A DNA stretch of 16,616 bases from Massilia sp. (GCA_039927975.1 JBDSTZ010000252.1:1-16616); one strand, 5' to 3'. Shown: positions 297 through 13,977, numbered from the stretch's first letter. A program made the numbers and translations. Notes: generated from the letters alone by a model not told the origin.

Positions 297-1766
297 ATGC
301 CGTTCATGATTTTGACGCGCGAAGGTTTCGACGATATCGTCGCGCGCGTGGAGCCGGCCGGTGCGGTCTTTTTGCTCAATCCGGTCATTGCGTCGGAGGC
401 CGAGATTGCGCGCCTGCGCGAGGCCGGCGGTACGGTCCATGTGCTTGATCCGGCGGCGCCGCCATCGCTGGCGGACGGCGCGCTCGATGCCGCTGGTATC
501 GGAGCCGAACCGGTGTGGGTCGAGCGTGCGACGGCCGGTTCGCGCCAGTCCGCTCTGGCCCTTGCTGCACCGGGCGCCGAACCCGAGGCCAGGCGTGCGC
601 CGCGTGCGCTGCGGCGGATCGGCAGGAGTGCCGGGGCGTTCGCCGGCGCCGCGTGGCGTGGTCTGCGTGCGGCCGGCGGGCCCCGGCGCCTGATGCTGCT
701 GCCCTACCTCGGTTTCGGTAACGCCGGCAAGCTCTGGCTCAAGGGCCGGGTGCTCGACGAACCGGCGTTTCGCGCCCAGACCGATCAGGACAGCCGCTGG
801 CGCAATATGCTCGCCTTGTACCAGCGGCTCGAATCCAACCAGGTGGCCGGCGCCCGCGTCCGCGCCAGCTTTGGCGGACAAACCTGGGACGCCGTCACCG
901 ATCGCGGCGGTTATTTTTCGTTCGAGATCGCGCCCGCGCAAGCGCTGGAAGGCGGCTGGCACGCAGTCGATCTCACCTTGCCGGACGCGCCCGACGCGAA
1001 CGGAGCCCCGCTTCACGCGAGCGCCCAGGTAATGGTGCCGGCGCCGAGCGCGCGCTTCGGCATCATCAGCGATATCGACGACACGGTGCTGTGGTCGAAC
1101 GCCACCAACAAGCTGAATATGGCGCTGATGCTGGCTCGCTCCAACCCATACACGCGGCAACCGTTCAAGGGCGTGGCGGCATTCTACCGGGCGCTCAAGG
1201 CGGGCGTCGGCGGCGAGGAAGACAACCCGGTGTTCTATGTGTCGAGCAGCCCGTGGCATCTGTTCGACCCGCTGCTCGAATTTCTGCGGCTGCGCGACAT
1301 TCCGGTCGGGCCCCTGCTGCTGCGCGAACTGGGCGTGCGCGAACTGCTGGCGTTGTCGAACCACCACCATCACAAGCTCGAGAAGATCGAGACGATCCTG
1401 CGCTTCTATCCCGGCATGCAGTTCGTGCTGATCGGCGACAGCGGCGAGCAGGACCCGGAAATCTATGCCGAGGTGGTGCGCCGCCATCCGCAGGCGGTGC
1501 GGGTGATTTATATCCGCAACGTGAACCCCGACCCTTCGCGTATCGACGCGCTTGATCGCCTGATCGAACAGGTCAGCGCCACCGGCACCCAGCTGATTCT
1601 GGCGCCCGACAGCGAGTTTGCGGCGGCCCACGCGGCGGCCGAAAAGCTGATCCAGGTCGATTGGCTGGCGGCGGTACGGCGCAATAAGAAAGAGGACGAG
1701 CGGAAGGAGGACGAGCGCAAGGAGGTCGTGCGGAAGGACGACGAGCGGCCGGCGCCGGCCACCTGA
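297..1766 (+). CDS. App1-like phosphatidate phosphatase family protein (DUF2183/App1 catalytic domain, HAD-like DxDxT), with a low-complexity KEDER-repeat C-terminal tail
   Basis: An ATG at 297 is preceded by ggagaggaaa as an RBS. The protein contains GIISDIDDTVLWSN, a HAD-type DxDxT nucleophile motif as in yeast App1 VISDIDDT, and LLPYLGFGNAGKLWLKGRVLDE, which is typical of bacterial App1 homologues. The ORF is 489 aa with strong GC3 codon bias. The 538-aa ORF on the opposite strand (258..1874) has no recognisable motifs. Confidence 0.8.
   Translation: MPFMILTREGFDDIVARVEPAGAVFLLNPVIASEAEIARLREAGGTVHVLDPAAPPSLADGALDAAGIGAEPVWVERATAGSRQSALALAAPGAEPEARRAPRALRRIGRSAGAFAGAAWRGLRAAGGPRRLMLLPYLGFGNAGKLWLKGRVLDEPAFRAQTDQDSRWRNMLALYQRLESNQVAGARVRASFGGQTWDAVTDRGGYFSFEIAPAQALEGGWHAVDLTLPDAPDANGAPLHASAQVMVPAPSARFGIISDIDDTVLWSNATNKLNMALMLARSNPYTRQPFKGVAAFYRALKAGVGGEEDNPVFYVSSSPWHLFDPLLEFLRLRDIPVGPLLLRELGVRELLALSNHHHHKLEKIETILRFYPGMQFVLIGDSGEQDPEIYAEVVRRHPQAVRVIYIRNVNPDPSRIDALDRLIEQVSATGTQLILAPDSEFAAAHAAAEKLIQVDWLAAVRRNKKEDERKEDERKEVVRKDDERPAPAT
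1690..1749 (+). repeat. In-frame 15-nt tandem repeat (aaggaggacgagcg[c/g], about 4 units) encoding the KEDER-KEDER-KEVVR-KDDER tail of the App1-like protein
   Basis: The tandem units are read directly at 1687-1749, giving the K/E/D/R-rich low-complexity C-terminus. Confidence 0.7.
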
Positions 1767-1892
1767 GCTTATCGGCGGCCAGCGTCGGCGCACTGGTATC
1801 ACAATATCAAGCCGGTATATGCGGCCCTGTTCGGGGCTTTGAAACGCGCGCGAAACCGCATACTGGTTGATCATCCACGCGCACAGCCCATC

Positions 1893-2720
1893 ATGAACTA
1901 CGGTTATCCCACGGTTGGCCCGCAGATCGCGTCAGCCACCAGCACGAGCGGCACCGGCAGCACCGGCAGCACCGGCAGCAGCACGCCCTTGTCGGCCGAC
2001 GTCGCGGCGCGCGTGAAGCAGACGCTCGCCGCACAGTCGACCGGCATCAACAAGCTCAATGACAGCCTGCTGCGCAACCAGACCAGGCTATCGGGCCTGG
2101 GCAAGCTGCAAAGCGCGCTGGCCGAGATGCAGGCCAGCGCCCAGAGCCTGTCGAGCGCGGCCACCGGCGCGAACGGCGTCGCGCCAAGCCAGGACGCCAG
2201 CCAGATCGGCAAGAACGTCCGCGCCTTCGTGGCCGCGTTCAATGCCATGAACGGCAAATTGCAAGCCTTGCAGGCGGGCGAACTCAAGTCCGATGCCGGC
2301 ATGAGCCGCGCGAGCGCCGAACTGGCGCAGCTGACTGGACTTGGCGGCGATGGCTTTTCGGCGCGCTCGCTGAGCGCGGCCGGCATCACGGTCGAGCGCA
2401 ATGGCAACTTGAAGATCGACGAGAAGGCCCTGACAGCGGCGCTGGCGAATGGTCCGTCCGCCGTCGGCGCGGTGTTTTCAAATGGCGGCAAGGGCCTGGC
2501 CGATGTGCTGGCCGACAGGCTGGCAAAACTGTCGAGCAAGGACGGCATGATCGGCAAGGAGTCGGCCAGCGCCAACAAGGAATTGAGCAGCGTGACGGCC
2601 CAGCGCACGGCGCTGGCCAAGGCGTTGACGGCGCAGGCGACCGCACTGGCGGCGATCTATTCGCGGCAGTCCGATGCACAGACCGGCAAGCCAAGCTCGC
2701 TGTTCGACATGCTGGCGTAA
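1893..2720 (+). CDS. Short FliD-family protein (flagellar filament cap / hook-associated protein 2-like) that has the N- and C-terminal FliD domains but no central head domains
   Basis: QTLAAQSTGINKLNDSLLRNQTRLSGLGKLQSALAEMQASAQSL aligns without gaps to the FliD_N consensus (..LqqkkstlqakiSAyGtLkSALstlQtalkaL). IGKNVRAFVAAFNAMNGKL matches the FliD linker pattern. LSAAGITVERNGNLKIDEKALTAALANGPSAVGAVFS matches FliD_C (ADIGITTDRNGKLSVDEAKLDKALKENPEAVKALFT). The protein is about 275 aa from the ATG at 1893; the track uses an in-frame TTG at 1839 as an alternative start. There is a Ser/Thr/Gly tract near the N-terminus (SATSTSGTGSTGSTGSST). GC3 bias is on the + strand, and the antisense ORF 1904..2620 is rejected. 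Confidence 0.6.
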   Translation: MNYGYPTVGPQIASATSTSGTGSTGSTGSSTPLSADVAARVKQTLAAQSTGINKLNDSLLRNQTRLSGLGKLQSALAEMQASAQSLSSAATGANGVAPSQDASQIGKNVRAFVAAFNAMNGKLQALQAGELKSDAGMSRASAELAQLTGLGGDGFSARSLSAAGITVERNGNLKIDEKALTAALANGPSAVGAVFSNGGKGLADVLADRLAKLSSKDGMIGKESASANKELSSVTAQRTALAKALTAQATALAAIYSRQSDAQTGKPSSLFDMLA

Positions 2721-3097: not shown

Positions 3098-3976
3098 CTA
3101 TTGGGCCCGGTCCAAACGCCGTGGCCGCTCGATCACCTCGCGGCAGGCCGCGGCGATGTCCGCTCCCCATTCGGCCAGCAGCGGCCCGGTCGGCACCAGC
3201 CGATCGTCGACTTCCAGCATGCCGATCCAGGCCCGCACCCGCACAGGCGCCAGCGCACCGAAGCACTGCTGGGCGACGACGTCCCTGCCGTTTTCCGGCC
3301 CACCCAAACGCTTGCCTGCACAGGAACCAGATTCCGGATGCAGCGGCGCGAAACCCGTTCCCTGGTTTCGCGAGTTGCCGCTCGTTTCATAGAACACGCT
3401 GATGGCGGGGGTGTAGCGCGTGAGCGTGTCCGGCAGCACCAAGGCGACGTCCCTGACCGCCGCTTCGTAGATATTCCCGGCATCGCCTTCCCACTCGATT
3501 TGCTGGCGCTGGCCGGCCGGGCCGCGGAAGCTCAGTGCCAGGCCGGCGGCGGACAGGTCGAGCGCGTCGCGATCGACCGTGAAGCGCGCTTCGAGCGGGT
3601 AGACTGGCCGGTAGTCGGGCGCGCGGCGATAGCGCAGGCTGTAGGTGATGCCTGGCGTGAAACCGCCGGCAAGTTCAAGGCGGAACAGGCGCGCGCCTCG
3701 CGGCAGGTCATTCGCCACCGGCCCTGGCCGCGCGACTTCCAGCGGCGTCACGATCAGTGCCGGCGCGAGCGCCAGTCCGGACGCGCTCACCTCGAAATCG
3801 GCAGGGTTGAGCCCCAGCGACTCGGGCACCATGAACAGCACGCCTCTCAGGTTGGACGGATACCGCTGCGCGCTGGCGTGCGGGAATCCGATCGTGGTGC
3901 TCGCGATGCACTGTGCCTGAGCGACGCCGTGCACGATTGCGGCGATGGCGAACATGACGATGCGAAGATGTTGCAT
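3098..3976 (-). CDS. Secreted protein of unknown function (Sec signal peptide), 292 aa
   Basis: An ATG at 3976 and a TAG stop at 3098-3100 bound the ORF. The N-terminus MQHLRIVMFAIAAIVHGVAQA-QC has a signal-peptide n/h/c structure. GC3 codon bias is on the minus strand. The overlapping + ORF 2963..4066 is Arg/Ala-rich with no motifs. No domain is recognisable by eye. Confidence 0.65.
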   Translation of the reverse strand: MQHLRIVMFAIAAIVHGVAQAQCIASTTIGFPHASAQRYPSNLRGVLFMVPESLGLNPADFEVSASGLALAPALIVTPLEVARPGPVANDLPRGARLFRLELAGGFTPGITYSLRYRRAPDYRPVYPLEARFTVDRDALDLSAAGLALSFRGPAGQRQQIEWEGDAGNIYEAAVRDVALVLPDTLTRYTPAISVFYETSGNSRNQGTGFAPLHPESGSCAGKRLGGPENGRDVVAQQCFGALAPVRVRAWIGMLEVDDRLVPTGPLLAEWGADIAAACREVIERPRRLDRAQ

Positions 3977-4120: not shown

Positions 4121-7081
4121 TTACTGGCCGAAGCGGTAACGCAGGTTCAGCCCGAAGTTACGGCCGTTACGATAGTGCTGCAACTCGAGGCCGGTCTCGT
4201 AATTGCCACCTGGTTCGCCGATGTAGCGGTTAGGCGCCTTGTCGAGAATGTTCGAGGCGTTCAGCGAGAGGGTCAGGTCCTTGGTGATGTTGTAGTTGAC
4301 CGAGCCGTCCAGGATACCGTAGGCGCCCATGTAGCGGCCCAAGATCGGTTGGGCGTCGAGCGCGAACACGGCGGCCGAACGCCAGGTGTAGACCAGGCGG
4401 GCGGAGAACTTCTGGTCTTCATACATGCCGCTGAAGCTGGCGCTGTTTTTCGACTGGAAGGGCTGCCACAGCTTGACGATGTTCGGTGCCGCCGCGGTGC
4501 CGTAGTTGACCGGATTCTCGGTCGTGACGTAGGTGTACGAACCGGACACGCCGAAGTTCTTCAGCCAGCTCAGCGAGTTGTCGAAGAAGTACTGGCCCGA
4601 CAGTTCGACGCCGCGTGCGAAACCTTTTTCCGCGTTGACGCGCTTGCTGACGCGATACTGGCCGTTCGTGCAGCTGTTCGACACTTGTCCATTGCCCGGC
4701 ACGTAAGCCGGCGCATTGTCGAGCGTGACGCATTCGCTGACATCGCTGAAGAAGCCCTTGATGGATTTGTTGAACACCGCCGCCGCGACATAGTTCGTCT
4801 TGTTGAAGTAGTGTTCAAGCGACAGGTCGAGGTTGTCCGACACCAGCGGCTTCAATTCCGGATTGCCGCGGCTACCGGTGCCGTCGACCGGATTGTAGTT
4901 GACGAACGGGTTCAGGTCGCCCAGCGCCGCGCGGGTCATGCCCCGGCCATAGCCGAAGCGCAGCAGGGTTTCCTTGCTGATATCGTAGGTCGCGTTGAAC
5001 GATGGCAGGGTGTTGCTGTACTCGGTGGTGCGCGCATTGTCGATCAGGCCGTTGACGCTGTTGATCTTGGTGATGGCCGTGCCGTTGGTGCGCACATAGC
5101 GCACACCGACTGCGCCGCGCAGGTGCTCGTCGAGGGCGGCGAATTCACCGACCACGTAGATGGCCTTGGTTTTCTCGTCGACGTAGCGGCGGTCCTGGAT
5201 GCGCTCGAGCAGCGCGCTTTCCATCTGGATGCCGGCCAGCGGGAATTGCGAACGGACCTGGTCGCCGAGCAGCAGATCCGGCGAGTACACCACGTAACCA
5301 CCCGAATAACCGGTGGTGCCGCCCATGAAGTTGGTCGGCGACGACTGGGTCACGCCATAGGTGCTGGCGAGGATGCCGTTGCTGCGGTCGGCTGCCAGCC
5401 CTTTGCCGTCGGTGGTCAACGGACGGTTGTTGTAGCTCCAGTTCTGCGACAAGTCGTCCTGCTTGGCAAGGCGGGTGCCGAACTTGATGCGCTTGAACAG
5501 GCCGTCCTCGATCGAATAGACGCCGGACAAGGCGAGCGCTTTGGCGCTGTCTTTGGAGGCCGAATTGTTACCGTTGTTAAATTCGCGGAACACGAAGTTG
5601 CTCGGGTCCGACAGACTCGGGCCGCTGAAATTGAGGGTGTGCGGCGAGCCATCGGCGACGCGCGAGGTGGTCCACGACAGGCCGTTCTTGGAGTCGAGGA
5701 AAACCGTGCGGTTGTCGGTGCGCTTGGTCGCTTTCAGGAAGGCGTAATCGGCTTTCAGGGCCAGGCTCGGAGTCGGGTTCCAGTCGCTGCCAAACGCCAC
5801 GTTCCAGGTCGAGTACGGGGTATGTTCGTCCACCGACACGGTGTTCACGGTCGAGTTGAGGAAGTCACCGCTCAGGGCACGCTTGGTAGCGAGCACGTCG
5901 TTGGCGCCGCCGCTGACGTTGCGTGCCGACATACCCTTGTCGAAGGTGAACGGCGAGGTTTGCAGGTTCGCCACGTTGACGCCGTCGTTCGAATTGAGGG
6001 CGCGGTAGTTCTGGTGGTACAGGTAGTAGGTGTAGTTGCTTTCGACGTAGAAGCGCAGGGTGTTGTCGACGCGGTAGTCGGCGGCGCCACTGAAGCCCTT
6101 GCGCTCGCGCATGATGGTTTCCTGCGACACGTTGGTGTTCAACGTGGTCGTGACCATGATGTTGTCGATCTGCGCTTGGGTCAGGCCGGTGTTGTCGGGT
6201 GTGTTCGGGCCGATGCTGCCGGCCGTGTTACGGATCGGCACGTTGATCAGGGCATTGATGTCGCTGCGGCCGACAAACTGCGCCTGGGCCTGGAACGGCG
6301 AGTTGGTGGTGTTGGCGGCGGCCAGGGTCGCGTACTCGGCGCTGTCGGCGCGCACCGCGCGTTTCAGGGCCGGGCCGCGGTTGCCCGGGTTGTTATCCGA
6401 GCGGTTGGTGCTGTTCTGCAATTGGCCGGCCAGGGTGTAGCCGAAGCGGCTGCCGCCGCCGAGGTCAATGCGGTTGGCAATGAGTCCGAACACATCCGGC
6501 TCGGTCTGCTTGGCCAGGTCGTTGTAGCGGGCGCCGGCGGAGATCGCGCCGGTCAGGCCCAGCTTGAAATCGCTCGGGTTGCGGGTGCGCACGTTGACCA
6601 GGCCGCCGATGCCGCCTTCGATGTGCTCGGCCGATGGATTCTTGTAGACGTCGACGCCGGCGATCATGCCGGGAATCGCGCTTTCGATGTTGTATTCGCG
6701 GTTGCCGGCGGAGAAGAACGCACGGCCGTTCACCAGCGAGGCGGTTTGGCCGGACAGGCCGCGGATGGTCAGGCCCGAACCGTTGCCGACTGGCGCCGCG
6801 CCTTCGCCGCCGTAGCGGTAGCCCTGCACGCCTGGAATCCGGGTCAGCGTTTCGGCGACGTTCGGATCGGGCAGCTTGCCGATGTCTTCGGCGGTGATCG
6901 AGTCGACCACTTCCATCGCGTCGCGCTTGATGGCGACCGACGAACGGGCGCTGGCCTTCATGCCGGTGACGACGACGGTTGGCGTGACCGCGTCGTCTGC
7001 CGCTACATGGGCGGCAAAGGCTTGCGACACCGCGAGTGCGATGGCGGACACTTTGAGTGTTCTTTGGAAATGCTTGTTCAT
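4121..7081 (-). CDS. TonB-dependent outer-membrane receptor of the large (986 aa) type typical of oligosaccharide uptake
   Basis: The signal peptide is MNKHFQRTLKVSAIALAVSQAFA-AHV. A TonB-box-like TPTVVVTG is present. Plug-domain motifs include DSITAEDIGKLPDPNVAETLTRIPGV and LTIRGLSG. The long beta-barrel ends ...LNLRYRFGQ with a terminal aromatic-x-x motif. The RBS aggggat lies 8 nt upstream of the ATG at 7081. Confidence 0.95.
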   Translation of the reverse strand: MNKHFQRTLKVSAIALAVSQAFAAHVAADDAVTPTVVVTGMKASARSSVAIKRDAMEVVDSITAEDIGKLPDPNVAETLTRIPGVQGYRYGGEGAAPVGNGSGLTIRGLSGQTASLVNGRAFFSAGNREYNIESAIPGMIAGVDVYKNPSAEHIEGGIGGLVNVRTRNPSDFKLGLTGAISAGARYNDLAKQTEPDVFGLIANRIDLGGGSRFGYTLAGQLQNSTNRSDNNPGNRGPALKRAVRADSAEYATLAAANTTNSPFQAQAQFVGRSDINALINVPIRNTAGSIGPNTPDNTGLTQAQIDNIMVTTTLNTNVSQETIMRERKGFSGAADYRVDNTLRFYVESNYTYYLYHQNYRALNSNDGVNVANLQTSPFTFDKGMSARNVSGGANDVLATKRALSGDFLNSTVNTVSVDEHTPYSTWNVAFGSDWNPTPSLALKADYAFLKATKRTDNRTVFLDSKNGLSWTTSRVADGSPHTLNFSGPSLSDPSNFVFREFNNGNNSASKDSAKALALSGVYSIEDGLFKRIKFGTRLAKQDDLSQNWSYNNRPLTTDGKGLAADRSNGILASTYGVTQSSPTNFMGGTTGYSGGYVVYSPDLLLGDQVRSQFPLAGIQMESALLERIQDRRYVDEKTKAIYVVGEFAALDEHLRGAVGVRYVRTNGTAITKINSVNGLIDNARTTEYSNTLPSFNATYDISKETLLRFGYGRGMTRAALGDLNPFVNYNPVDGTGSRGNPELKPLVSDNLDLSLEHYFNKTNYVAAAVFNKSIKGFFSDVSECVTLDNAPAYVPGNGQVSNSCTNGQYRVSKRVNAEKGFARGVELSGQYFFDNSLSWLKNFGVSGSYTYVTTENPVNYGTAAAPNIVKLWQPFQSKNSASFSGMYEDQKFSARLVYTWRSAAVFALDAQPILGRYMGAYGILDGSVNYNITKDLTLSLNASNILDKAPNRYIGEPGGNYETGLELQHYRNGRNFGLNLRYRFGQ

Positions 7082-7153
7082 ACTTTTTTATCCCCTGCTT
7101 TTGGTGGTTTTTTTTGGGTAAATCATTTGCTATCGGCTTCACGCGCTGCGGCG

Positions 7154-7169
7154 GGATATCGATAACAAA
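7154..7169. promoter_or_regulatory. Candidate operator ggATATCGATAACAAA upstream of the TBDR gene (copy 1 of a motif shared across the locus)
   Basis: The motif sits 73-88 nt upstream of the TBDR ATG, immediately downstream (minus-strand sense) of a TATGAT -10-like hexamer. Its 8-bp palindromic core TATCGATA is identical to the copies at 11298-11336 and 13794-13809. Confidence 0.45.
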
Positions 7170-7301
7170 CCGGAGCGATCATACGAGAATTTCTTTTGAT
7201 AATGAATACTTTTTTGACTTGTTGCGTATGTACAACGCTCAAGCGCCCCTCCCTCCTTTCTTGATGCGCGATACGCGCGACATGGCTCAACGGCGGCGCA
7301 T

Positions 7302-7375
7302 GTCGCGCGTGTCGTTCGTGGTCGCGCGTGTCGTTCGTGTCGCGCATGTCGTTCGTGTCGCGCATGTCGCGCAAG
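7302..7375. repeat. Tandem direct repeat with a 19-nt unit gtcgcgcgtgtcgttcgtg, two perfect and about two degenerate copies, in the PEP-CTERM/TBDR intergenic region
   Basis: Units are at 7302-7320 and 7321-7339 (both perfect), 7340-7357 (18 nt, G to A change), then a decaying copy. There are no interspersed unique spacers, so this is not a CRISPR array. It creates the artefactual MSFVSRMSFVSR peptide of track ORF 7328..8104. Confidence 0.75.
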
Positions 7376-7492
7376 TCGCATATGTCGTCCACATCGTCCG
7401 CATCGCGCGGCAACGCGGCAACACTAGCCCCGCCGACAGGGCGAGCGCCCCGTCGGCCGATCAAACATCGCGTGGAAAAATGCCTCGGTGGC

Positions 7493-8083
7493 TCAGCCCT
7501 GGCGGCGGCGCAGCGCGGCGAACATGGCGCAGCCGGCCACCAGCATCAGCAGGAACGGCGCCGGTTCCGGCACCTGGTTCACTTGCGTGAGCGCGTTGGT
7601 GACGAAGCTCAGTTGCTGGCCGATCGGCGCACCCGGCTGGACGAAAATGCTGCCGAGGTCGCCGTTGGCGCCCAGATAGCTGGTGTCGTTGAACAAGGCC
7701 CAGCTGAACGCGCTGCCGTCGCCGCTGCCGGCCACGAAGCTGACATCGAAGATGAAGTGGCCGCCCAGCGTGATCGCCTGTACCAGGTCGCCACCGCCGC
7801 CGGGGCTGCTGAACACGACTGTGCCTGGCAGCGCGCCACTGACCGAACCGCTGGTGTTCTCGGCGCCCACCAGCGCGCCGGTCAGGCCGCTGAGGGAGGC
7901 GCTGCTGCCAGTGTCGGACAACACCAGGAAATTGAAACCGAGGTAAGCGCTGCCGCTACCCAGGGTCGAGGTGTCGATGTCGACGTGGAAGTACGGCACG
8001 GCGGTCGCGCCGGCGCCGCCGGCCGAGGCGCACAGCGCGAGCGCCAGCGCCAGGCGTGCGAAGATATTTTTGTAGTGATGCAT
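7493..8083 (-). CDS. PEP-CTERM sorting-domain protein (putative exosortase substrate), about 196 aa, with a Gly/Ser-rich N-terminal domain of unknown function
   Basis: The C-terminus ...VNQVPEPAPFLLMLVAGCAMFAALRRRQG* is a canonical PEP-CTERM (VPEP, TM helix, Arg cluster). The signal peptide is MHHYKNIFARLALALALCASAGGAGA. A strong RBS AAGGAGA lies 6 nt upstream of the ATG at 8083. The track start at 8131 is rejected because it overlaps the upstream gene and has no RBS. The start is 10 nt downstream of the lyase A stop, so the two genes are in one operon. Confidence 0.85.
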   Translation of the reverse strand: MHHYKNIFARLALALALCASAGGAGATAVPYFHVDIDTSTLGSGSAYLGFNFLVLSDTGSSASLSGLTGALVGAENTSGSVSGALPGTVVFSSPGGGGDLVQAITLGGHFIFDVSFVAGSGDGSAFSWALFNDTSYLGANGDLGSIFVQPGAPIGQQLSFVTNALTQVNQVPEPAPFLLMLVAGCAMFAALRRRQG

Positions 8084-8093
8084 GGTGGTCTCC

Positions 8094-11000
8094 TTAATAT
8101 TTAACGCTGATGAATTTCGACGTGTACCCAATGGCCGCCTTGTTCGGATTCGAGAAGGTGGTCGTCAAGGTCACGGTCTGTCCAGGCGCCAGATCGGCCG
8201 CCGGCAGCGTGATGTACGGCGCGCCGTCATGCGTGCCGGTGGCGTTGTCGAGCGTGACGCCGGCGGTAAGGCCGTCGAGCCGGAATTGCAGCGGGCCGTA
8301 CAGCGTGGCGTCGCTGGTGTTGGTGATGCTGACGGTGCCGGTGTACTTGAGCGTGAAGCGGTTCATCGTCAGGCCCGAGCGCATGATCTTCGCGCTGGCG
8401 CCCAGGTCGACCGGGGTCAGCAAGTCGTAGCGGGTGCCGAAGAAGCGCAGTTCGCCGTACGACGAAATGCCGGGGAAGGCGGGATCGGTCGGCACGCCCG
8501 GATGGTCGACGCGCATCATGAAGTAGCGGTAGCGCTGCTTCTCCAGGCCTGGCACCACGGGGATGACTTCCATCTCGAAATTGCGCTCGGTGGTGTCGCT
8601 CGTTTCACGGCTCGACAGCAAGGTCCAGCTGGCGTTGTCGTTCGAGCCGTAGATGTTCAAGCCCTGCGAGCGGTTGGCGAACATGAAGCGCGCCTGCACG
8701 CCGATGGCGCCGAGCGACATCCGGTAGTCGGCGCCGAGATCGAGGTAGGCCGGCGCGCGCAGGTCGCCCGAGTAGCTGTTGTAGTCGCCGTCGACCAGCA
8801 GCGCGGCGCGGTTGCGGTCGAAATTGGTGGTGCCGGCGATGAAGTTCTTGCTCCAGTCCAGGCTGCCGTCGGCGACCACGAGCGGATTGAGCAGTTCCAG
8901 TTTGGCGGTCACGCCCTGCACTTGCTTGAGCAGGGCCGGGAAGTCGGCGTCGCTGGTGCTGTCGATGGCCGCCTGCAGCGGCGCCATGCTGGACTTGAAG
9001 GCGGCCAGCGACGGCGTGGTGTACACCTTCTCGGCGCTGTAGCCGTCCTGGGCGACCTGGAAGGCGGTGGCGCGGTCCGGTTGCACACTCAGGCGCGCCG
9101 TCATGGTGTTGATCGAGACGCCATCGGTGACGCTGATGACGATATTGTGCACGCCGACCTGGTCGGCGCCGGGGGTCCAGTTGAACTGGCCGCTGGCGCT
9201 GTCGAGGCTGGCGCCGGCCGGCAGGCTGATGCCCTCGTAGACCGGGGTGTCGGCGGCATTCGCGTCGGTCGCCTTGTAGTTGCCCGTGTACGGCACGCCC
9301 TGCACCACCAGCTCGGTGACGGGGAACGCCGGCGAGGCGAAGAACGGCACCGTCAGCTGGGTCGGCGCGGCCATGTTGACGAAGTCGACGTCCACCGTGC
9401 TGCCTTCGGCGCCGCTGAACTTGAAGACGATCAGGTTGGCGCCGAGCCACTTGCCGGCGGTCGCCGCGTTCGACGAGTCGGGCACGATGTAGCGCCACTG
9501 GCCGTGCGTGTTGGGCACCGTGATGTCGGCCCACGGACTGGCGTTCTGCTCGGCGCTGGCGCTCATTTTCATGACCGCGTTGGTGCGCACCATCATGCCC
9601 ACCGGGGCGAACTTGGCGCGGTCCGCATAGCCGACGTCGTGGAAGGCGATGGTGGCGCCGGCCGGCTTGACGTCGGCGTGGCCATAGGTGCGTCCCGCTT
9701 CGGTCTGGGTGGTCCAGGCGCCCGCGATGAAACTGCTCTTGCGTTCGGTCTGCAGCAAGCCCTGGTCGTTCGGCAGCGCCACGCCGGTCAGCGCGGTCGG
9801 GATGGTCAGGAAGGCTTGCGAGCCCATGTCCTTGTTGTTCGGCGTGGCGTTGCCCCAGAAAATGGCCGGGCCGTTCGAGTGGGCCGCCGCCGCCGCGAGG
9901 TAGGGCGCGGTCGCTTCGACGTCGACGCCTTCCTGGTACTTGTACATATTGTAGATTTCGGCGATCGCGTCGACTTCGTAGAGCCGGCCGCGGTACGCGC
10001 TCGACGGATAGGAGGTGCCGCCATTGGTGTCGGCCCACGGGATCTCGTAGCCGAGCATGTACTGGGCGTAGGCGTTGGCACCCTTTAGCAGGCGGTTGCC
10101 GCCGAACTGATAGACGCTGACCGCGTCGCCCAGGGTCGAGGGCTTGCCGCTGAAGGGATCGACCTTGGTGCCTTGCGCGTTGACCAGGCGGAACAGGCCG
10201 GACAGGATGTCGACGTTGTCGCCGCCGTGGGCTTGGTCGCGGGCCATTTCCTGGATCTGGTAGAACGGCACGCCGAACTTGTTGTACGGGTTGTTCACGT
10301 CGATGAAGGGAATCAGCGGCAGCACGGCGCCGTTGATGTTCTGGCGGGTCGAGGTGGCGTTGACCGTCATCCATTCGACGGTTTCATCGTAGCGCGCGCG
10401 GTTGTCGGTGAAGATCGCGCCCGCCATGCGTCCGACCAGCGAGTAATTGTGCTGGTTCATGAAGCGCTCGTTGCTCGAAAACAGCACGCGCTCGAGCGGG
10501 TCGATCAGGTTGTCCTTGAGCTTCTGGGTGTCGGTATCGGTCCAGGCGAGCGGATAGGAGGTGTAGCTCGGATCGGCGTAGGAGTAGCGCATGATCTCGG
10601 CCGCCTGCAGCATGCGCGAGAGCGGCACGCCGTTGTGGATGTGGGCGTCGGGGAAATACGCTGCGCCGGCCGGATTCATATTGCTCCAGGTGCGCAGGAT
10701 GCGCATGGCGTTGCGGCGATAGTCGTTATTGCCCGTCACGTAGTACAGGATGGCCTGGGTCAGCGCGCCTTGCGAATCGTTGATCAGGCGGGTCTGGGCC
10801 GTATTGTTGTTGAAGTTAGGGGTGTTCGGGGTGTCGACCTTGGTCGAGTCGCGGTTGGTCGGCTGCAGGTTGATGTTGGCGTAGTTGCAGCAGGCGGTGG
10901 CCAGCGCGTCGTAGTAACTCTTGTACGGCTCGACGTCGGCGCGCACCTGCTGACGCATGTAGTCGAGCTGCTCCATCGTGAAGCCGAGCGCCGGATGCTT

Positions 11001-11177
11001 GAAGCCGTTCGGGCTGACGACCGGCTGCGAGGCCGGGGTGGAGATGAAACCGAGCGCTTGAGCGGGCGCCGTTGCCAGCGCCCACAGGGCCGCGGCGACC
11101 GACACTGCCGTGACGCAGGCCTTGAGCGTGCCGCGTGCGGGACGCGCGATGCTGCCATTTTCATAACGATTGTGCAT
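8094..11177 (-). CDS. Secreted multidomain polysaccharide-lyase-like protein (about 1027 aa). Domains are an alginate-lyase/heparinase-type (alpha/alpha)-toroid with a beta-sandwich, a He_PIG-type Ig-like domain, an F5/8 type C (discoidin, CBM32-like) domain and a C-terminal beta-domain.
   Basis: The signal peptide is MHNRYENGSIARPARGTLKACVTAVSVAAALWALATAPAQA-LG. The ATG at 11177 with AAGGA 5 nt upstream is preferred over 11192, which has no RBS. The toroid region is paralogous to the next gene, sharing HP(A/G)L..T...(D)(F/Y)MR..V, AAEIMRY, a Q-HN motif and a RDQ(A/G)H motif. LPAGASLDSASGQFNWTPGADQVGVHNIVISVTDG matches the putative-Ig (He_PIG) pattern. ALLVDGDYNSYSGDLRAPAYLDLGADYRMSLGAIGV..IYGSNDNASWTLL matches F5/8 type C. 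The exact lyase family is unresolved. Confidence 0.75.
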   Translation of the reverse strand: MHNRYENGSIARPARGTLKACVTAVSVAAALWALATAPAQALGFISTPASQPVVSPNGFKHPALGFTMEQLDYMRQQVRADVEPYKSYYDALATACCNYANINLQPTNRDSTKVDTPNTPNFNNNTAQTRLINDSQGALTQAILYYVTGNNDYRRNAMRILRTWSNMNPAGAAYFPDAHIHNGVPLSRMLQAAEIMRYSYADPSYTSYPLAWTDTDTQKLKDNLIDPLERVLFSSNERFMNQHNYSLVGRMAGAIFTDNRARYDETVEWMTVNATSTRQNINGAVLPLIPFIDVNNPYNKFGVPFYQIQEMARDQAHGGDNVDILSGLFRLVNAQGTKVDPFSGKPSTLGDAVSVYQFGGNRLLKGANAYAQYMLGYEIPWADTNGGTSYPSSAYRGRLYEVDAIAEIYNMYKYQEGVDVEATAPYLAAAAAHSNGPAIFWGNATPNNKDMGSQAFLTIPTALTGVALPNDQGLLQTERKSSFIAGAWTTQTEAGRTYGHADVKPAGATIAFHDVGYADRAKFAPVGMMVRTNAVMKMSASAEQNASPWADITVPNTHGQWRYIVPDSSNAATAGKWLGANLIVFKFSGAEGSTVDVDFVNMAAPTQLTVPFFASPAFPVTELVVQGVPYTGNYKATDANAADTPVYEGISLPAGASLDSASGQFNWTPGADQVGVHNIVISVTDGVSINTMTARLSVQPDRATAFQVAQDGYSAEKVYTTPSLAAFKSSMAPLQAAIDSTSDADFPALLKQVQGVTAKLELLNPLVVADGSLDWSKNFIAGTTNFDRNRAALLVDGDYNSYSGDLRAPAYLDLGADYRMSLGAIGVQARFMFANRSQGLNIYGSNDNASWTLLSSRETSDTTERNFEMEVIPVVPGLEKQRYRYFMMRVDHPGVPTDPAFPGISSYGELRFFGTRYDLLTPVDLGASAKIMRSGLTMNRFTLKYTGTVSITNTSDATLYGPLQFRLDGLTAGVTLDNATGTHDGAPYITLPAADLAPGQTVTLTTTFSNPNKAAIGYTSKFISVKY

Positions 11178-11297
11178 GATTGTCCTTATCATTTTTTAAA
11201 TGACCAGGCGATCCAGGGGTCGCGTAGTTCTCCTCCAATGGTATGTTTTCGATACCACAAACGATGCTAGCATGATTTATTGTTATTTCAGTTAAGC

Positions 11298-11344
11298 TTT
11301 TTGTTATCGATATCCTCATTTTTGTTATCGATATCCAATGTCAA
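11298..11344 (-). promoter_or_regulatory. Promoter/operator region of lyase A. Two perfect 18-nt direct repeats tttttgttatcgatatcc at 21-bp spacing lie downstream of a consensus -35 TTGACA.
   Basis: Copies are at 11298-11315 and 11319-11336, separated by tca. Each contains the palindrome TATCGATA. On the minus strand the perfect TTGACA (rc of 11339-11344) is followed by operator 1 and then operator 2, placing the operators over the spacer/-10/+1 region. This is an AT-rich island in GC-rich DNA, 121-159 nt upstream of the ATG. Confidence 0.5.
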
Positions 11345-11468
11345 TACGCGACTCCCTATGATCACCTCGGCAAGTAGGGGGAAAGTGCCACTGCGCGGCG
11401 CGGACGCGGCTGTGCTCTCAAGTGCAACATTAGGCGAAAAAGCAACAGAATCCGGCGCACGGGCACGC

Positions 11469-11491
11469 AAAAAGGGGCGCCGAAGCGCCCC
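11469..11491 (-). terminator. Rho-independent terminator of lyase B
   Basis: The stem ggggcgc pairs with gcgcccc around a cgaa loop (11474-11491). It is preceded on the + strand by AAAAA (11469-11473), which gives a U-tract on the minus strand, and lies 44 nt downstream of the TAA stop at 11535-11537. Confidence 0.6.
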
Positions 11492-11534
11492 ACCCTTGCA
11501 GCAAAAACCGAATGGCACCCGGGGCGCCGCCCGC

Positions 11535-13703
11535 TTAACTTTGCATCAGCGTGACAATCTCGCTGGCGCTGAGCGCGCCGCTGTAGATGCGGAAGTCGTC
11601 GATTTTGCCGTTGAAGTAAGGGTCGCTGGCGTATTGCGAGCGGCCGATCCAGTTCTGGTTGGTCGAGCCGAGCCGGAACGGCGCGTGCTTGATGTCGGGG
11701 CTCGATCCAACCAGTGCGCCGTTGACGTAGAGCGAGCCGTTGCTGCCTGCCAGGGTCACGGCCACGTGCACCCACTGCCCGGTCGGCAGCGCGGCGGTGC
11801 CGACGATGCCCTGTTCGCCGACGCCGTAATCGGTCGTGATGCCAAAGCGCAGCAGGCCGTTGTTGGTGCTCGGGGTCAGCATCATGTAGTGCTCGGTGCC
11901 GTTACCGAAATCGAAGATGCGCGTCCAGTTGCGCGCGGCGTCCCAGTACACCCAGGCGGCGATGGTGAAGTCGGCCAGCGTGCGCACCACGTCAGTCGGC
12001 AGGCTGACGTAATCGTTGCTGCCGTCGAAGGCCAGCGCGTTGCCGCTGCGCCCGGCCACCCACAACGGACCGTTGACCAGGGTGCCGGACTGGCCGCGCC
12101 CGGTGGCGTCGGCCGCCACCGTGCCGCTGGTTTCGTCGAACTTGAGCCAGACGTGCGGACGCTTGCCCGCGCCGACCTTCACCTCGGCCGAGGGCGCGCT
12201 TTCGCCGGCCGGGCCGACCGCCGTCACCACGTAATAATAGAGGCCGCTGCTCACGCCAGTGTCGGTCCAGGTGAGCAAGTCGCTGATGCCGCTGGCGACG
12301 GTGGTGTACGGCCCGCCCGAGATGGTGGCGCGCTTGACCTTGTAGCTGGTGGCCTGGGCACTGCCCCACCACGACAGCAGCACCGCGCCGCCGCTCCAGT
12401 TTCCGGTCAGCCCGCTTGGCGCTGCACCGGCGGCGTATGGATCGCGCGTGAAGGTGAGCGTGCCAAAGCCAAGCTGGTCACCGTTGCCGCCGTTGTTTTC
12501 CGGACGCATCTGCGCGGCCTGCAGCGCGGTGTACGGCGCGGCCAGGCCCTTGCGGTTGACGTAGTGGTTCAGCACCAGTTCCCACACCGGACGCAGGCTG
12601 CCCTGCGAGGCCGGCGACAGCCCCGGCTGGGTGTTGTTGATGTTCTTGTAGAGCGTGAACGGCACACTGTAGTGGGCGCCGCTGGCGTCGGTCAGATTCG
12701 ATTTCGCCACATACTCCGAGCCGGCCAGGAAGCGGTTGTTATCGTAGCCGAACATGTCGTCGCCCTGGTTCCAGGCCATTTCGCAAAACACACTGGCGAG
12801 GCCGATCCCCAGCGTGCAGTGGCCCTGATCGCGGCCGCTTTCCTGCCACTGTCCCAGATGACCCGGATGCACGTAGTACACGGCCTGGCTGCTGCTGCCG
12901 TTGCCCGCTCCGGTCTTGAAGTAATTGATCGCCTCGTCGTACAGGTCGGCGCGGTCGCAAAAGACGCCGATCGCGATGATCGCGGCGATCGTGCACTGGT
13001 CCCAGTTGGCCCAGTAATTGGTGATGTCGGCGCCGTTGTGCTGGACCAGGAACTGGTGGTTCAGCGGATAGAAGACATTGAGCAGCAAGTTCTGGAACTT
13101 GGTCTGGTCGGCCGCCGCCCAGCCGGGATAGGTGCGCATGATTTCGGCGGCGTTGGCCCATTCGTAGCCTTGGATGCCGGCAGCGAGGAAGCGGTCGGCG
13201 TTGCCGGTCAGGGTCGTCATGGTCGACGACCAGGCGTTCAGGAAGACCACCGCCTGGTCGGCGTAGGCGGTGTCGCCGGAAACCTTCCAGCGCAGCGCCA
13301 TCTGGTAGGTGCGATGGATATCGATAACCATTTGGTTCACGTTGTCGCCGGTGCCGCCGCGGATCACCGTCTGCAGCGCGCGCGGCGCGGTGCCGAGCTG
13401 GGAGTAGCCGTTGGCCAGCAGAGCGTTCCAGCCGTCCAGCCAGGGCTGGGCGCCGGCCGTCACCTTGGCGCGCATGCGGGTGAAGTCCGCTTCGGTGTGC
13501 AGCAGGCCCGGGTGGATGAAGGTGCGCGCGACCAGGGCGTCGGCGAGCAGGGTCGGCGCCGCCGCGCCGGGGGCCGCCGTGGAGGTCTCGGCCGCGCCGC
13601 CGCAACCGGACAGGCTGAGCGGGCCGAGCGTGGCCAGCCCGAGTCCGCCCGCGCACAGCGAACGGCGTTTCATGGAAAATTTTTGATCGTTGTTATTTGA
13701 CAT
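11535..13703 (-). CDS. Lipoprotein alginate-lyase-family-like (alpha/alpha-toroid) polysaccharide lyase with a C-terminal fibronectin type III domain and a LamG_3 (concanavalin A-like lectin) domain, 722 aa
   Basis: The ATG at 13703 has GAGGAG 5 nt upstream. The N-terminus MSNNNDQKFSMKRRSLCAGGLGLATLGPLSLSGC has a lipobox LSGC, and the RRSL may indicate Tat export. The catalytic toroid is paralogous to lyase A (FIHPGLLHTEADFTRMRAKV, AAEIMRTY, VQHN, RDQGHCTLG). An FN3-like segment follows (SWWGSAQATSYKVKRATISGGPYTTVASG...YYYVVTAV). LamG_3 motifs are also present (WVYWDAARNWTRIFDFGNG....GKIDDFRIYSGALSASEI). Confidence 0.8.
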   Translation of the reverse strand: MSNNNDQKFSMKRRSLCAGGLGLATLGPLSLSGCGGAAETSTAAPGAAAPTLLADALVARTFIHPGLLHTEADFTRMRAKVTAGAQPWLDGWNALLANGYSQLGTAPRALQTVIRGGTGDNVNQMVIDIHRTYQMALRWKVSGDTAYADQAVVFLNAWSSTMTTLTGNADRFLAAGIQGYEWANAAEIMRTYPGWAAADQTKFQNLLLNVFYPLNHQFLVQHNGADITNYWANWDQCTIAAIIAIGVFCDRADLYDEAINYFKTGAGNGSSSQAVYYVHPGHLGQWQESGRDQGHCTLGIGLASVFCEMAWNQGDDMFGYDNNRFLAGSEYVAKSNLTDASGAHYSVPFTLYKNINNTQPGLSPASQGSLRPVWELVLNHYVNRKGLAAPYTALQAAQMRPENNGGNGDQLGFGTLTFTRDPYAAGAAPSGLTGNWSGGAVLLSWWGSAQATSYKVKRATISGGPYTTVASGISDLLTWTDTGVSSGLYYYVVTAVGPAGESAPSAEVKVGAGKRPHVWLKFDETSGTVAADATGRGQSGTLVNGPLWVAGRSGNALAFDGSNDYVSLPTDVVRTLADFTIAAWVYWDAARNWTRIFDFGNGTEHYMMLTPSTNNGLLRFGITTDYGVGEQGIVGTAALPTGQWVHVAVTLAGSNGSLYVNGALVGSSPDIKHAPFRLGSTNQNWIGRSQYASDPYFNGKIDDFRIYSGALSASEIVTLMQS

Positions 13704-13793
13704 TCGGTCTCCTCTTCAGTTGAAAGCCCGCGTGCCCGGCGAGATTGTCGAGCATGAACGGGGGTGCTTGAAGCAGGCAGATTATGCGCGGTA

Positions 13794-13809
13794 TTTTATC
13801 GATAACACG
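13794..13809. promoter_or_regulatory. Candidate operator ttTTATCGATAACAcg (perfect 10-bp palindrome TTATCGATAA) upstream of lyase B, adjacent to a CATAAT -10-like hexamer
   Basis: The site lies 91-106 nt upstream of the lyase B ATG on the minus strand. On the minus strand the order is TGTTATCGATAAAA, then taccgcg, then CATAAT. It is the same motif as at 7154-7169 and 11298-11336. Confidence 0.45.
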
Positions 13810-13901
13810 ATTGCTCACCTATGGTTTTTTTCACGGGAAGTCGGGCTGTGTTTACGTGTTTTGGTATGCCTTCAGCGTGTTTGGACGGAAGTTCACGCAG
13901 G

Positions 13902-13977
13902 ATGCATTTGAGATGCATTCGGCATGCAATCACTATGCAATCAGCATGCAATCAGCGTTCAATCAGCGGGTAATCGT
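13902..13977. repeat. Array of 7 heptads ATGCA(A/T)T (decaying to gttcaat and gggtaat) at exact 11-bp spacing, with a core unit ATGCAATCAGC
   Basis: Heptad starts are at 13902, 13913, 13924, 13935, 13946, 13957 and 13968. The array lies in the divergent intergenic region between lyase B (-) and the flotillin-like gene (+). It creates a spurious N-terminal extension of track ORF 13784..16222. Confidence 0.8.

Follow-up and report, generated by a model that had tools for sequence, protein, structure and literature searches.

The locus considered here raises the question of why a gene for a small PEP-CTERM protein should stand between a secreted multidomain enzyme and a TonB-dependent receptor (TBDR), in what resembles a polysaccharide-utilisation system. 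The window, meaning the whole stretch of DNA that was analysed, is the entire 16,616-bp contig of a soil Massilia metagenome-assembled genome, and it carries on its minus strand genes for a lipoprotein (G1), the secreted enzyme (G2), the PEP-CTERM protein (G3), the TBDR (G4) and a further protein with a signal peptide (G5). On balance, the arrangement is probably best explained as a co-regulated glycan-acquisition regulon of lyase-like enzymes and a TBDR, combined with a tethering cassette that comprises the C-terminal domain (CTD) of G2 and the NF038129-family protein G3. The wider proposition, that the cassette is an undescribed two-component surface display system (the CTD as plug, an exosortase-anchored protein as socket) and that the enzymes constitute one or two new polysaccharide lyase (PL) families acting on plant uronate glycans, is put forward more tentatively.

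The PEP-CTERM gene is a constant neighbour of G2. The latter (8094..11177, minus strand, in an open reading frame (ORF) extending to 11192) encodes 1027 aa from the NCBI start at 11177, beginning with a Sec signal and ending in the CTD (8097..8420, minus strand), which occupies the last ~105-108 residues. G3 (7493..8083, minus strand, 196 aa) starts 10 nt after the G2 stop codon, and its identification as a PEP-CTERM protein in the first-pass annotation of this DNA is borne out by a match to NF038129 at 151.6 bits (cutoff 65) that spans positions 2-194 of 194; the score on TIGR02595 is 20.2 (cutoff 16), and that on Pfam PF07589 is 20.0, just below the 20.7 required. The protein begins with a signal peptide, continues with a core of ~140 aa, at residues ~27-168, and ends in a VPEP motif, transmembrane (TM) segment and RRR tail (7502-7576, minus strand). 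At every Oxalobacteraceae locus examined, an NF038129 protein of ~190-205 aa begins 10-14 nt past the stop codon of the G2 orthologue. On this model every partner tested reaches 149-172 bits, and the PEP-CTERM tail is kept in all partner members compared. One genome can carry several cassettes side by side: Pseudoduganella sp. LjRoot289 (L016, 18533-23081) has, besides the G2-G3 pair, a 1662-aa He_PIG/discoidin paralogue of G2 that is accompanied by a separate NF038129 protein of 218 aa; the two pairs are 5 kb apart, with members of glycoside hydrolase (GH) families GH43 and GH51 encoded in between. The actinobacterial homologues of G2 have neither the CTD nor the partner.

This association extends to enzymes unrelated to G2. 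Three distant members of NF038129, 30-39% identical to G3, were traced to their genomic neighbours. The first stands after a G2 paralogue of 1664 aa, within a cluster of TBDR-LacI-GH2-GH28-GH43/51 composition, and the other two follow ExeM/NucH nucleases of ~1000 aa (LTD and Exo_endo_phos domains). The last ~100 residues of G2 are 50-59% identical to the C-termini of those unrelated nucleases and of the long paralogues. When 1.84 billion cluster representatives were searched with HMMER, CTD matches were found in 2009 clusters at E<=1e-3 and in 468 at E<=1e-10; the domain lies <=15 residues from the C-terminus in 146 of the 148 top representatives, and its last residue is frequently aromatic (...SG[TSN]F). 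Its carriers include ExeM-type nucleases, a PL1 pectate lyase, PL9 and PL8 enzymes (one of the latter with CBM96), members of GH28, GH10 and GH3, a GDSL esterase and a WD40 protein, the named examples coming from Duganella and Pseudoduganella. Metagenomic loci were then sampled with a CTD pattern derived from a 7-sequence alignment, which retrieved 80, of which 76 had room downstream; partner detection by hmmsearch, corrected by tblastn, placed an NF038129-like gene immediately downstream on the same strand in 73 of these (96%). The first-pass annotation had regarded the PEP-CTERM gene as an unusual insertion into a depolymerase operon, a view that does not survive the finding that the partner tracks the CTD on nucleases, xylanases and pectate lyases alike. 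Because this holds whatever the type of enzyme, the presence of the PEP-CTERM gene is informative about how the enzyme is handled, rather than about its substrate.

The divergence of the CTD and that of the partner are correlated (r 0.83 overall, 0.72 between cargo classes), and the cassette appears to travel and evolve as a pair. The two halves have no detectable homology to each other (HHalign probability 3% for the CTD against the partner core). For the CTD, no NCBIfam match was found at E<=0.1, no significant Pfam match, and no PDB profile match below E 0.1; there are weak similarities to Ig-like or carbohydrate-binding module (CBM)-like domains. One apparent fusion of CTD and partner (P0334) was considered as a Rosetta-stone case and rejected as a read-through artefact, as it contains an internal signal peptide; in this metagenome gene call the nuclease CTD and the partner are two codons apart, probably because a stop codon was lost or the assembly is wrong. 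A separate subfamily (P0287, P0297, P0300, P0339 and P0352) has two tandem copies of the CTD and ends in ...GPGEF or ...GPGDR. Two metagenome contigs (L019 and L021) have a nuclease-NF038129 pair between sugar-nucleotide/WecG-type polysaccharide genes and a set resembling type II secretion system (T2SS) or pilus genes, with more PEP-CTERM proteins nearby, a possible link of the cassette to matrix or biofilm loci. A non-exhaustive literature search found no description of the pairing of the CTD with NF038129.

It is proposed that the cassette is a split anchor. G2 would be secreted, and its CTD would then dock non-covalently onto G3 at the cell surface, where exosortase processing of the PEP-CTERM tail would fix G3 to the envelope or matrix; G1 would be held at the envelope by its own lipid anchor, with G2 next to it on the cell surface and above the TBDR. 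The CTD would thus sit where other lineages have a covalent sorting tail, the anchor itself being supplied by the co-translated partner, and the two genes together would form a portable cassette serving many unrelated secreted enzymes in the Burkholderiales. Homologues of ExeM in Shewanella have a covalent GlyGly-CTERM sorting tail at the position of the CTD (PMC3237569; NF033680). This GlyGly-CTERM/rhombosortase system shares with the CTD both the extreme C-terminal position and the ExeM/NucH cargo, while the CTD of type IX secretion system (T9SS) substrates is of similar size to the one found here. However, unlike these, the CTD of G2 has no TM segment and no match to sorting-signal or T9SS models, and its function would be non-covalent and dependent on a partner. 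The signal peptide, VPEP motif, TM helix and basic tail of G3 are those of PEP-CTERM/exosortase protein sorting (Haft 2006, PMC1569441); in the classical system the sorted protein bears the tail itself, whereas here the enzyme lacks a tail and has instead a CTD and a separate small PEP-CTERM partner. In its working principle alone, the proposal resembles the cohesin-dockerin interaction, in which a small C-terminal module on varied enzymes is bound by a separately anchored protein, although neither the CTD nor G3 matches the cohesin or dockerin Pfam families at E<=1. It would differ from a cellulosome in its one-to-one pairing of genes rather than many enzymes per scaffoldin, in its Gram-negative host and in its proposed exosortase-dependent anchor, and the binding here is a supposition.

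The case for a glycan-acquisition regulon comes from a palindromic operator-like motif, TATCGATAACA, with the palindromic core TTATCGATAA, found upstream of G1, G2 and the TBDR gene. An exact copy of ATATCGATAACA lies 75 nt before the start codon of G4 (7156..7167, plus strand); two more exact copies are upstream of G2 (11302-11313 and 11323-11334, minus strand), together with a weaker third (11244-11255); and the form TTATCGATAACA (13796..13807, plus strand), with one mismatch to the core, precedes G1 and recurs as a variant elsewhere. The window has 10 sites at <=2 mismatches, compared with 0.21 expected. The motif occurs <=300 nt upstream of G2 in all 20 non-redundant orthologous loci, at least two copies being present in 13, and the fetched loci combined, 0.91 Mb in all, contain 61 sites where 0.46 would be expected. 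It is found elsewhere at a divergent TBDR/KduI pair (L001), before a GH28-like gene and a TBDR (L005 and L032), before the GH78-like gene of L016 and before a long G2 paralogue (L020); the TBDR orthologues that it precedes in L001 and L005 are 59-63% identical to G4. Neither the nuclease loci nor the actinobacterial ones carry it, and the Variovorax locus does not either. Two of the motif-bearing loci have adjoining LacI genes, that of L001 at 12198-13247, and these genes are 60% identical to one another.

Palindromes of 14 bp with CG at their centre are characteristic of LacI-family operators, and the form TGTTATCGATAACA is presumably a LacI target. The palindromic TATCGATAAC(A) operator on G1, G2-G3 and G4 would be bound by a LacI-family repressor encoded elsewhere. 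Directly after G1 is a strong hairpin resembling an intrinsic terminator (11474..11491, minus strand; 7 GC pairs then TTTTT), so that G1 should form a transcription unit separate from G2-G3. Since they share the motif, G1, G2-G3 and G4 can be regarded as a regulon despite their unconserved gene order, which points to three co-regulated transcription units under a LacI-type regulator. The polysaccharide-utilisation unit recognised in the first-pass annotation is supported in this sense, as the motif before G1, G2 and the TBDR gene is kept in orthologous loci. The system has its closest parallels in the proteobacterial TBDR-centred carbohydrate utilisation (CUT) loci of Xanthomonas type, and in the polysaccharide-utilisation loci (PULs) of Bacteroidota: secreted or surface depolymerases are encoded near a TBDR of the TonB-Xanth-Caul type, and a LacI-type operator is common to the units. 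It differs in that the window has no inner-membrane transporter or regulator, and in that the genes are linked by an operator motif rather than by synteny. No SusD-like family is present among the window proteins, which therefore lack the adjacent SusC/SusD pair of a Bacteroidota PUL, and the TBDR is of the proteobacterial Xanth-Caul type. Two tandem repeats lie close to operator-like sites. Between G3 and G4, on the upstream side of the operator and promoter of the TBDR gene, there are about ten copies of a 9-bp unit (7296-7387), arranged as an 18-bp super-unit, CGAACGACATGCGCGACA, repeated 3.8 times; between G1 and the neighbouring SPFH gene an 11-bp repeat, ATGCAATCAGC, is present in five copies (13913-13967), about 110 nt from the site before G1.

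G1 and G2 both possess an (alpha/alpha) toroid catalytic fold. G1 (11535..13673, minus strand, in an ORF extending to 13703) encodes a lipoprotein of 712 aa from the NCBI start at 13673, in which a signal read from the sequence as a Tat-like RR and the lipobox LSGC is followed by the toroid (about 12414-13526; PF05426 Alginate_lyase, E 1.4e-15, 58.0 bits), an FN3 domain (about 12174-12431; PDB 3mpc, E 3e-14) and a Laminin_G_3 domain (about 11556-12026; E 6.6e-37), all on the minus strand. The start of the G1-family consensus (13604-13673), S-L-x-R-R-x-F...L-x-x-C-G-G-G, combines a Tat-like twin arginine with a lipobox, which suggests that the protein is exported folded and lipidated afterwards. 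In G2 the toroid (about 9783-11015; PF05426, 25.1 bits) is succeeded by a CBM6-like beta-sandwich (about 9366-9758), identified by Foldseek on the AlphaFold model, a He_PIG domain (9108-9311; E 1e-7) and a discoidin-like domain (about 8577-8816), again all on the minus strand. Nearly all of the domain calls of the first-pass annotation hold, the qualification being that F5_F8_type_C is sub-threshold in G2 itself while above threshold in its homologues. Pfam assigns both toroids to the alginate lyase family, above the PF05426 gathering threshold of 22.2 bits, and not to a non-lyase family. The structural comparison proposed at the outset gave the same answer: with AlphaFold models built from family alignments (pLDDT 86.5 for G1 and 90 for G2), Foldseek had a similar outcome for both, returning PL5-like toroid lyases at 9-16% identity. 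By sequence, no lyase was found among all PDB chains, whether by phmmer with G1 and G2 or by profile hmmsearch with the G1 family.

The two enzymes had been described as paralogous lyases. Homology is clear when the families are compared as profiles (HHalign probability 99.9%, E 1e-32, 358 columns), yet the proteins themselves are only 22% identical (BLASTP, E 2e-10), and they are ancient, distant homologues, not recent paralogues. The RDQ(A/G)H motif discerned in the first-pass annotation is real, R-D-Q-[GA]-H being invariant in both families; further residues invariant in both are an Asn, a Glu three positions before the Arg (E-x-x-R-D-Q-x-H), a second Arg and a C-terminal Tyr. In ORF numbering the motif residues are R291/D292/Q293/H295 in G1 and R318/D319/Q320/H322 in G2. 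The 'Q-HN' motif said to be shared is not, as the profile alignment sets N-Q-H of G2 opposite N-W-D of G1, rather than opposite the upstream 'QHN' of the latter. Comparison with AlgL, whose sequence and catalytic His of the NNHSYW motif, H202, were checked against PDB 4ozv/4ozw, yielded short local alignments alone, global HHalign of the family profiles having failed. M-N-Q-H-N-Y of G2 is weakly matched to I-N-N-H-S-Y of AlgL (E 0.04); in G1, the residues opposite the His of this NNH motif are N-W-D (aligned via G2) or I-T-N (via AlgL), neither of which includes a His. The catalytic Tyr of AlgL (R249...Y256, R-x6-Y) is absent, the +7 residue being Leu in G1 and Asp in G2, and at the position of Y256 both have instead the invariant R-D-Q-[GA]-H. 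Low identity also separates G1 and G2 from the known toroid lyases of PL5 (A1-III, AlgL), PL38, PL35, PL40, PL15 and PL17, from which they differ in addition by their multidomain architecture (FN3/LamG in one, CBM6-like/He_PIG/discoidin/CTD in the other) and, in the case of PL5-type enzymes, by a genomic context indicative of plant glycans rather than alginate. As far as sequence comparison can tell, neither can be shown to belong to PL5 or to any other family for which a structure has been solved. They form part of a branch of the PL5-like toroid superfamily not characterised before, and are most likely lyases acting on uronates; both would act on a uronate-containing, probably plant, heteroglycan by abstraction of the C5 proton (beta-elimination), and the oligosaccharides freed near the surface would enter through G4.

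Gene order around G2-G3 was compared across roughly 20 non-redundant loci. The arrangement of five genes is not conserved as a unit, contrary to what the first-pass annotation would lead one to expect: G1 and G4 have orthologues close to G2-G3 in one genome each, and G5 in none. The G1 family is widespread, standing alone in Variovorax. The closest relative of G1 (75%) is found in Pseudoduganella namucuonensis (L001), next to genes for LacI, DUF6805, KduI, an AGE-family protein and a TBDR that shares 63% identity with G4; the DUF6805 gene, a 343-aa unknown and the AGE-family (GlcNAc_2-epim) gene with KduI (13352-13825 and 18005-20280) are candidates for downstream steps of the pathway. A second orthologue of G4 (59%) is in Duganella CF402, 5 kb downstream of G2-G3, with GH28-like and GH2 genes between and a GH43 gene after. 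The carbohydrate-active enzyme (CAZyme)-bearing neighbourhoods of G2 include GH43, GH51, GH2, GH28-like, GH78-like and rhamnogalacturonan I (RGI) lyase genes as well as KduI, while the homologue in Arthrobacter is accompanied by GH43, GH31, GH95, GH27, GH127 and sugar-ABC genes. With modest confidence, these contexts would suggest a uronate-containing plant glycan decorated with arabinose, galactose or rhamnose. They indicate neither alginate nor the organism's own exopolysaccharide (EPS), the latter of which had been offered in the first-pass annotation as a potential substrate.

Several observations weigh against the combination of regulon and tethering cassette. The postulated binding of the CTD to G3 draws on gene adjacency and analogy, and the correlated divergence of the two is expected for any co-inherited genes and is no proof of contact. 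Three CTD genes (in L063, L076 and L077) have no partner. Moreover, the 80 sampled loci are the closer relatives of the CTD, at 47-73% identity, and the rule of adjacency may hold less well for the ~2000 clusters that are more distant. No exosortase gene is present within the 16.6-kb contig, which is the only part of the genome that was viewed, and the window holds no regulator gene. A Pfam scan of 71 pooled G2-G3 neighbours returned mostly unrelated genes, which makes inference of the substrate from synteny weak, the plant-glycan idea depending on a minority of neighbourhoods. Finally, as the PL5 catalytic Tyr is missing and G1 does not clearly retain the His, the chemistry could differ from beta-elimination. 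The corresponding alternative, that the toroids are not lyases and instead act as uronate C5-epimerases or hydrolases on a PL5-like scaffold, is considered unlikely.

With regard to the PEP-CTERM partner, the main rival to tethering is a role in export. Under this explanation the CTD would be a secretion signal, for instance for recognition by the T2SS or for folding, and NF038129 a periplasmic or outer-membrane helper. The strictly C-terminal location of the CTD and its frequent aromatic end are reminiscent of some outer-membrane targeting signals, the pairs in L019 and L021 adjoin T2SS-like genes, and one-to-one pairing at 10-16 nt spacing would suit a chaperone. However, a complete and conserved PEP-CTERM tail marks a protein that is exported and processed, which would be odd for a helper that is recycled, and the covalent anchor signals present at the same position of ExeM in other lineages favour anchoring; the export role is rather improbable. 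More doubtful still is the notion that G3 is an independent SusD/SusE-like glycan binder feeding the TBDR, the CTD being a generic Ig-like domain and the adjacency a result of cassette duplication. The TBDR is indeed present without a SusD, and the similarities of the CTD are weakly Ig-like or CBM-like, but nucleases and esterases have the partner as faithfully as glycan enzymes do, a TBDR is lacking within 6-10 kb of most G2-G3 pairs, and adjacency to one specific C-terminal domain in 96% of cases would be difficult to account for if partner and domain were not directly linked in function. Least probable of all is that the PEP-CTERM gene ties the locus to EPS or biofilm and that the lyases remodel or disperse the cell's own EPS: PEP-CTERM proteins depend on exosortase, itself linked with EPS loci (PMC1569441), and the NF038129 genes of L019 and L021 are near sugar-nucleotide and WecG-type genes, but the partnered enzyme in those two contigs is a nuclease instead of a glycan enzyme, GH10, GH28, PL1, PL8 and GDSL enzymes are likewise followed by this partner family, G2 loci with GH43, GH51, GH2, GH28, GH78, KduI and TBDR genes imply catabolism of foreign plant glycans, the actinobacterial homologues of G2 are in GH43/GH31/GH95/GH127 sugar-ABC loci, and the window is without EPS biosynthesis genes.

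The remaining features of the window can be dealt with more briefly. All five minus-strand genes listed in the first-pass annotation exist as ORFs with a coding-type GC content at third codon positions (0.81-0.91, with 0.81 for G5). The span of 4121-13703 assigned to them accommodates four, G5 (3098..3976, minus strand) falling outside it. G4 (4121..7081, minus strand) encodes a TBDR of the TonB-Xanth-Caul subfamily with both Plug and barrel Pfam matches, scoring 485.5 bits on TIGR01782 (cutoff 310) over profile positions 3-868 of 868; it had been called a giant receptor, but with 986 aa aligned end to end with a profile of length 868, it is of ordinary size for the subfamily. G5, a 292-aa ORF with a signal peptide, has no match in Pfam or NCBIfam, no homologue in any related locus and no operator motif upstream, and its membership in the system is not supported. 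An unknown ORF downstream of the Duganella TBDR was compared with it as a candidate counterpart and rejected as unrelated. The five ORFs are flanked by a tRNA-Ala(GGC) gene (2835-2910) and a divergent SPFH/Band-7 gene. The tRNA gene lies directly downstream of the locus, with a near-consensus sigma-70 promoter sequence, TTGACG-18-TATAAT (11/12), in 2835-2955, and nothing in the GC content clearly marks an island. Further along, a 293-aa FliD-like ORF (1839-2720, plus strand; FliD_C E 1e-17), whose location and short length are unusual for a flagellar cap protein, adjoins a homologue of APP1-type phosphatidate phosphatase (297-1766, plus strand).

Environmental Gram-negative bacteria are rich in PEP-CTERM proteins, most of which have no assigned role. 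A TBDR/CAZyme regulon and the toroid superfamily are of kinds already known; what would be new is a two-protein form of exosortase-dependent sorting. If docking of the CTD onto G3 were to fail, what remained would be a TBDR/CAZyme cluster of the ordinary proteobacterial kind, its lyase-like enzymes unclassified. The rule observed in 73 of 76 loci, across enzyme classes, nevertheless provides a testable hypothesis of non-covalent tethering to an exosortase-anchored partner, with a scope of about 2000 protein clusters. Were it true, the two uncharacterised PL5-like toroid families, with their R-D-Q-x-H centre, and the operator would together be leads to plant-glycan lyase specificities, and the cassette, being small and modular, could serve as tag and anchor for surface display in Gram-negative hosts. 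It would also be the first case of a PEP-CTERM protein family with a defined molecular role, within a one-to-one Gram-negative analogue of cohesin-dockerin, and would explain how soil Burkholderiales retain costly exoenzymes and their products close to TonB-dependent importers.

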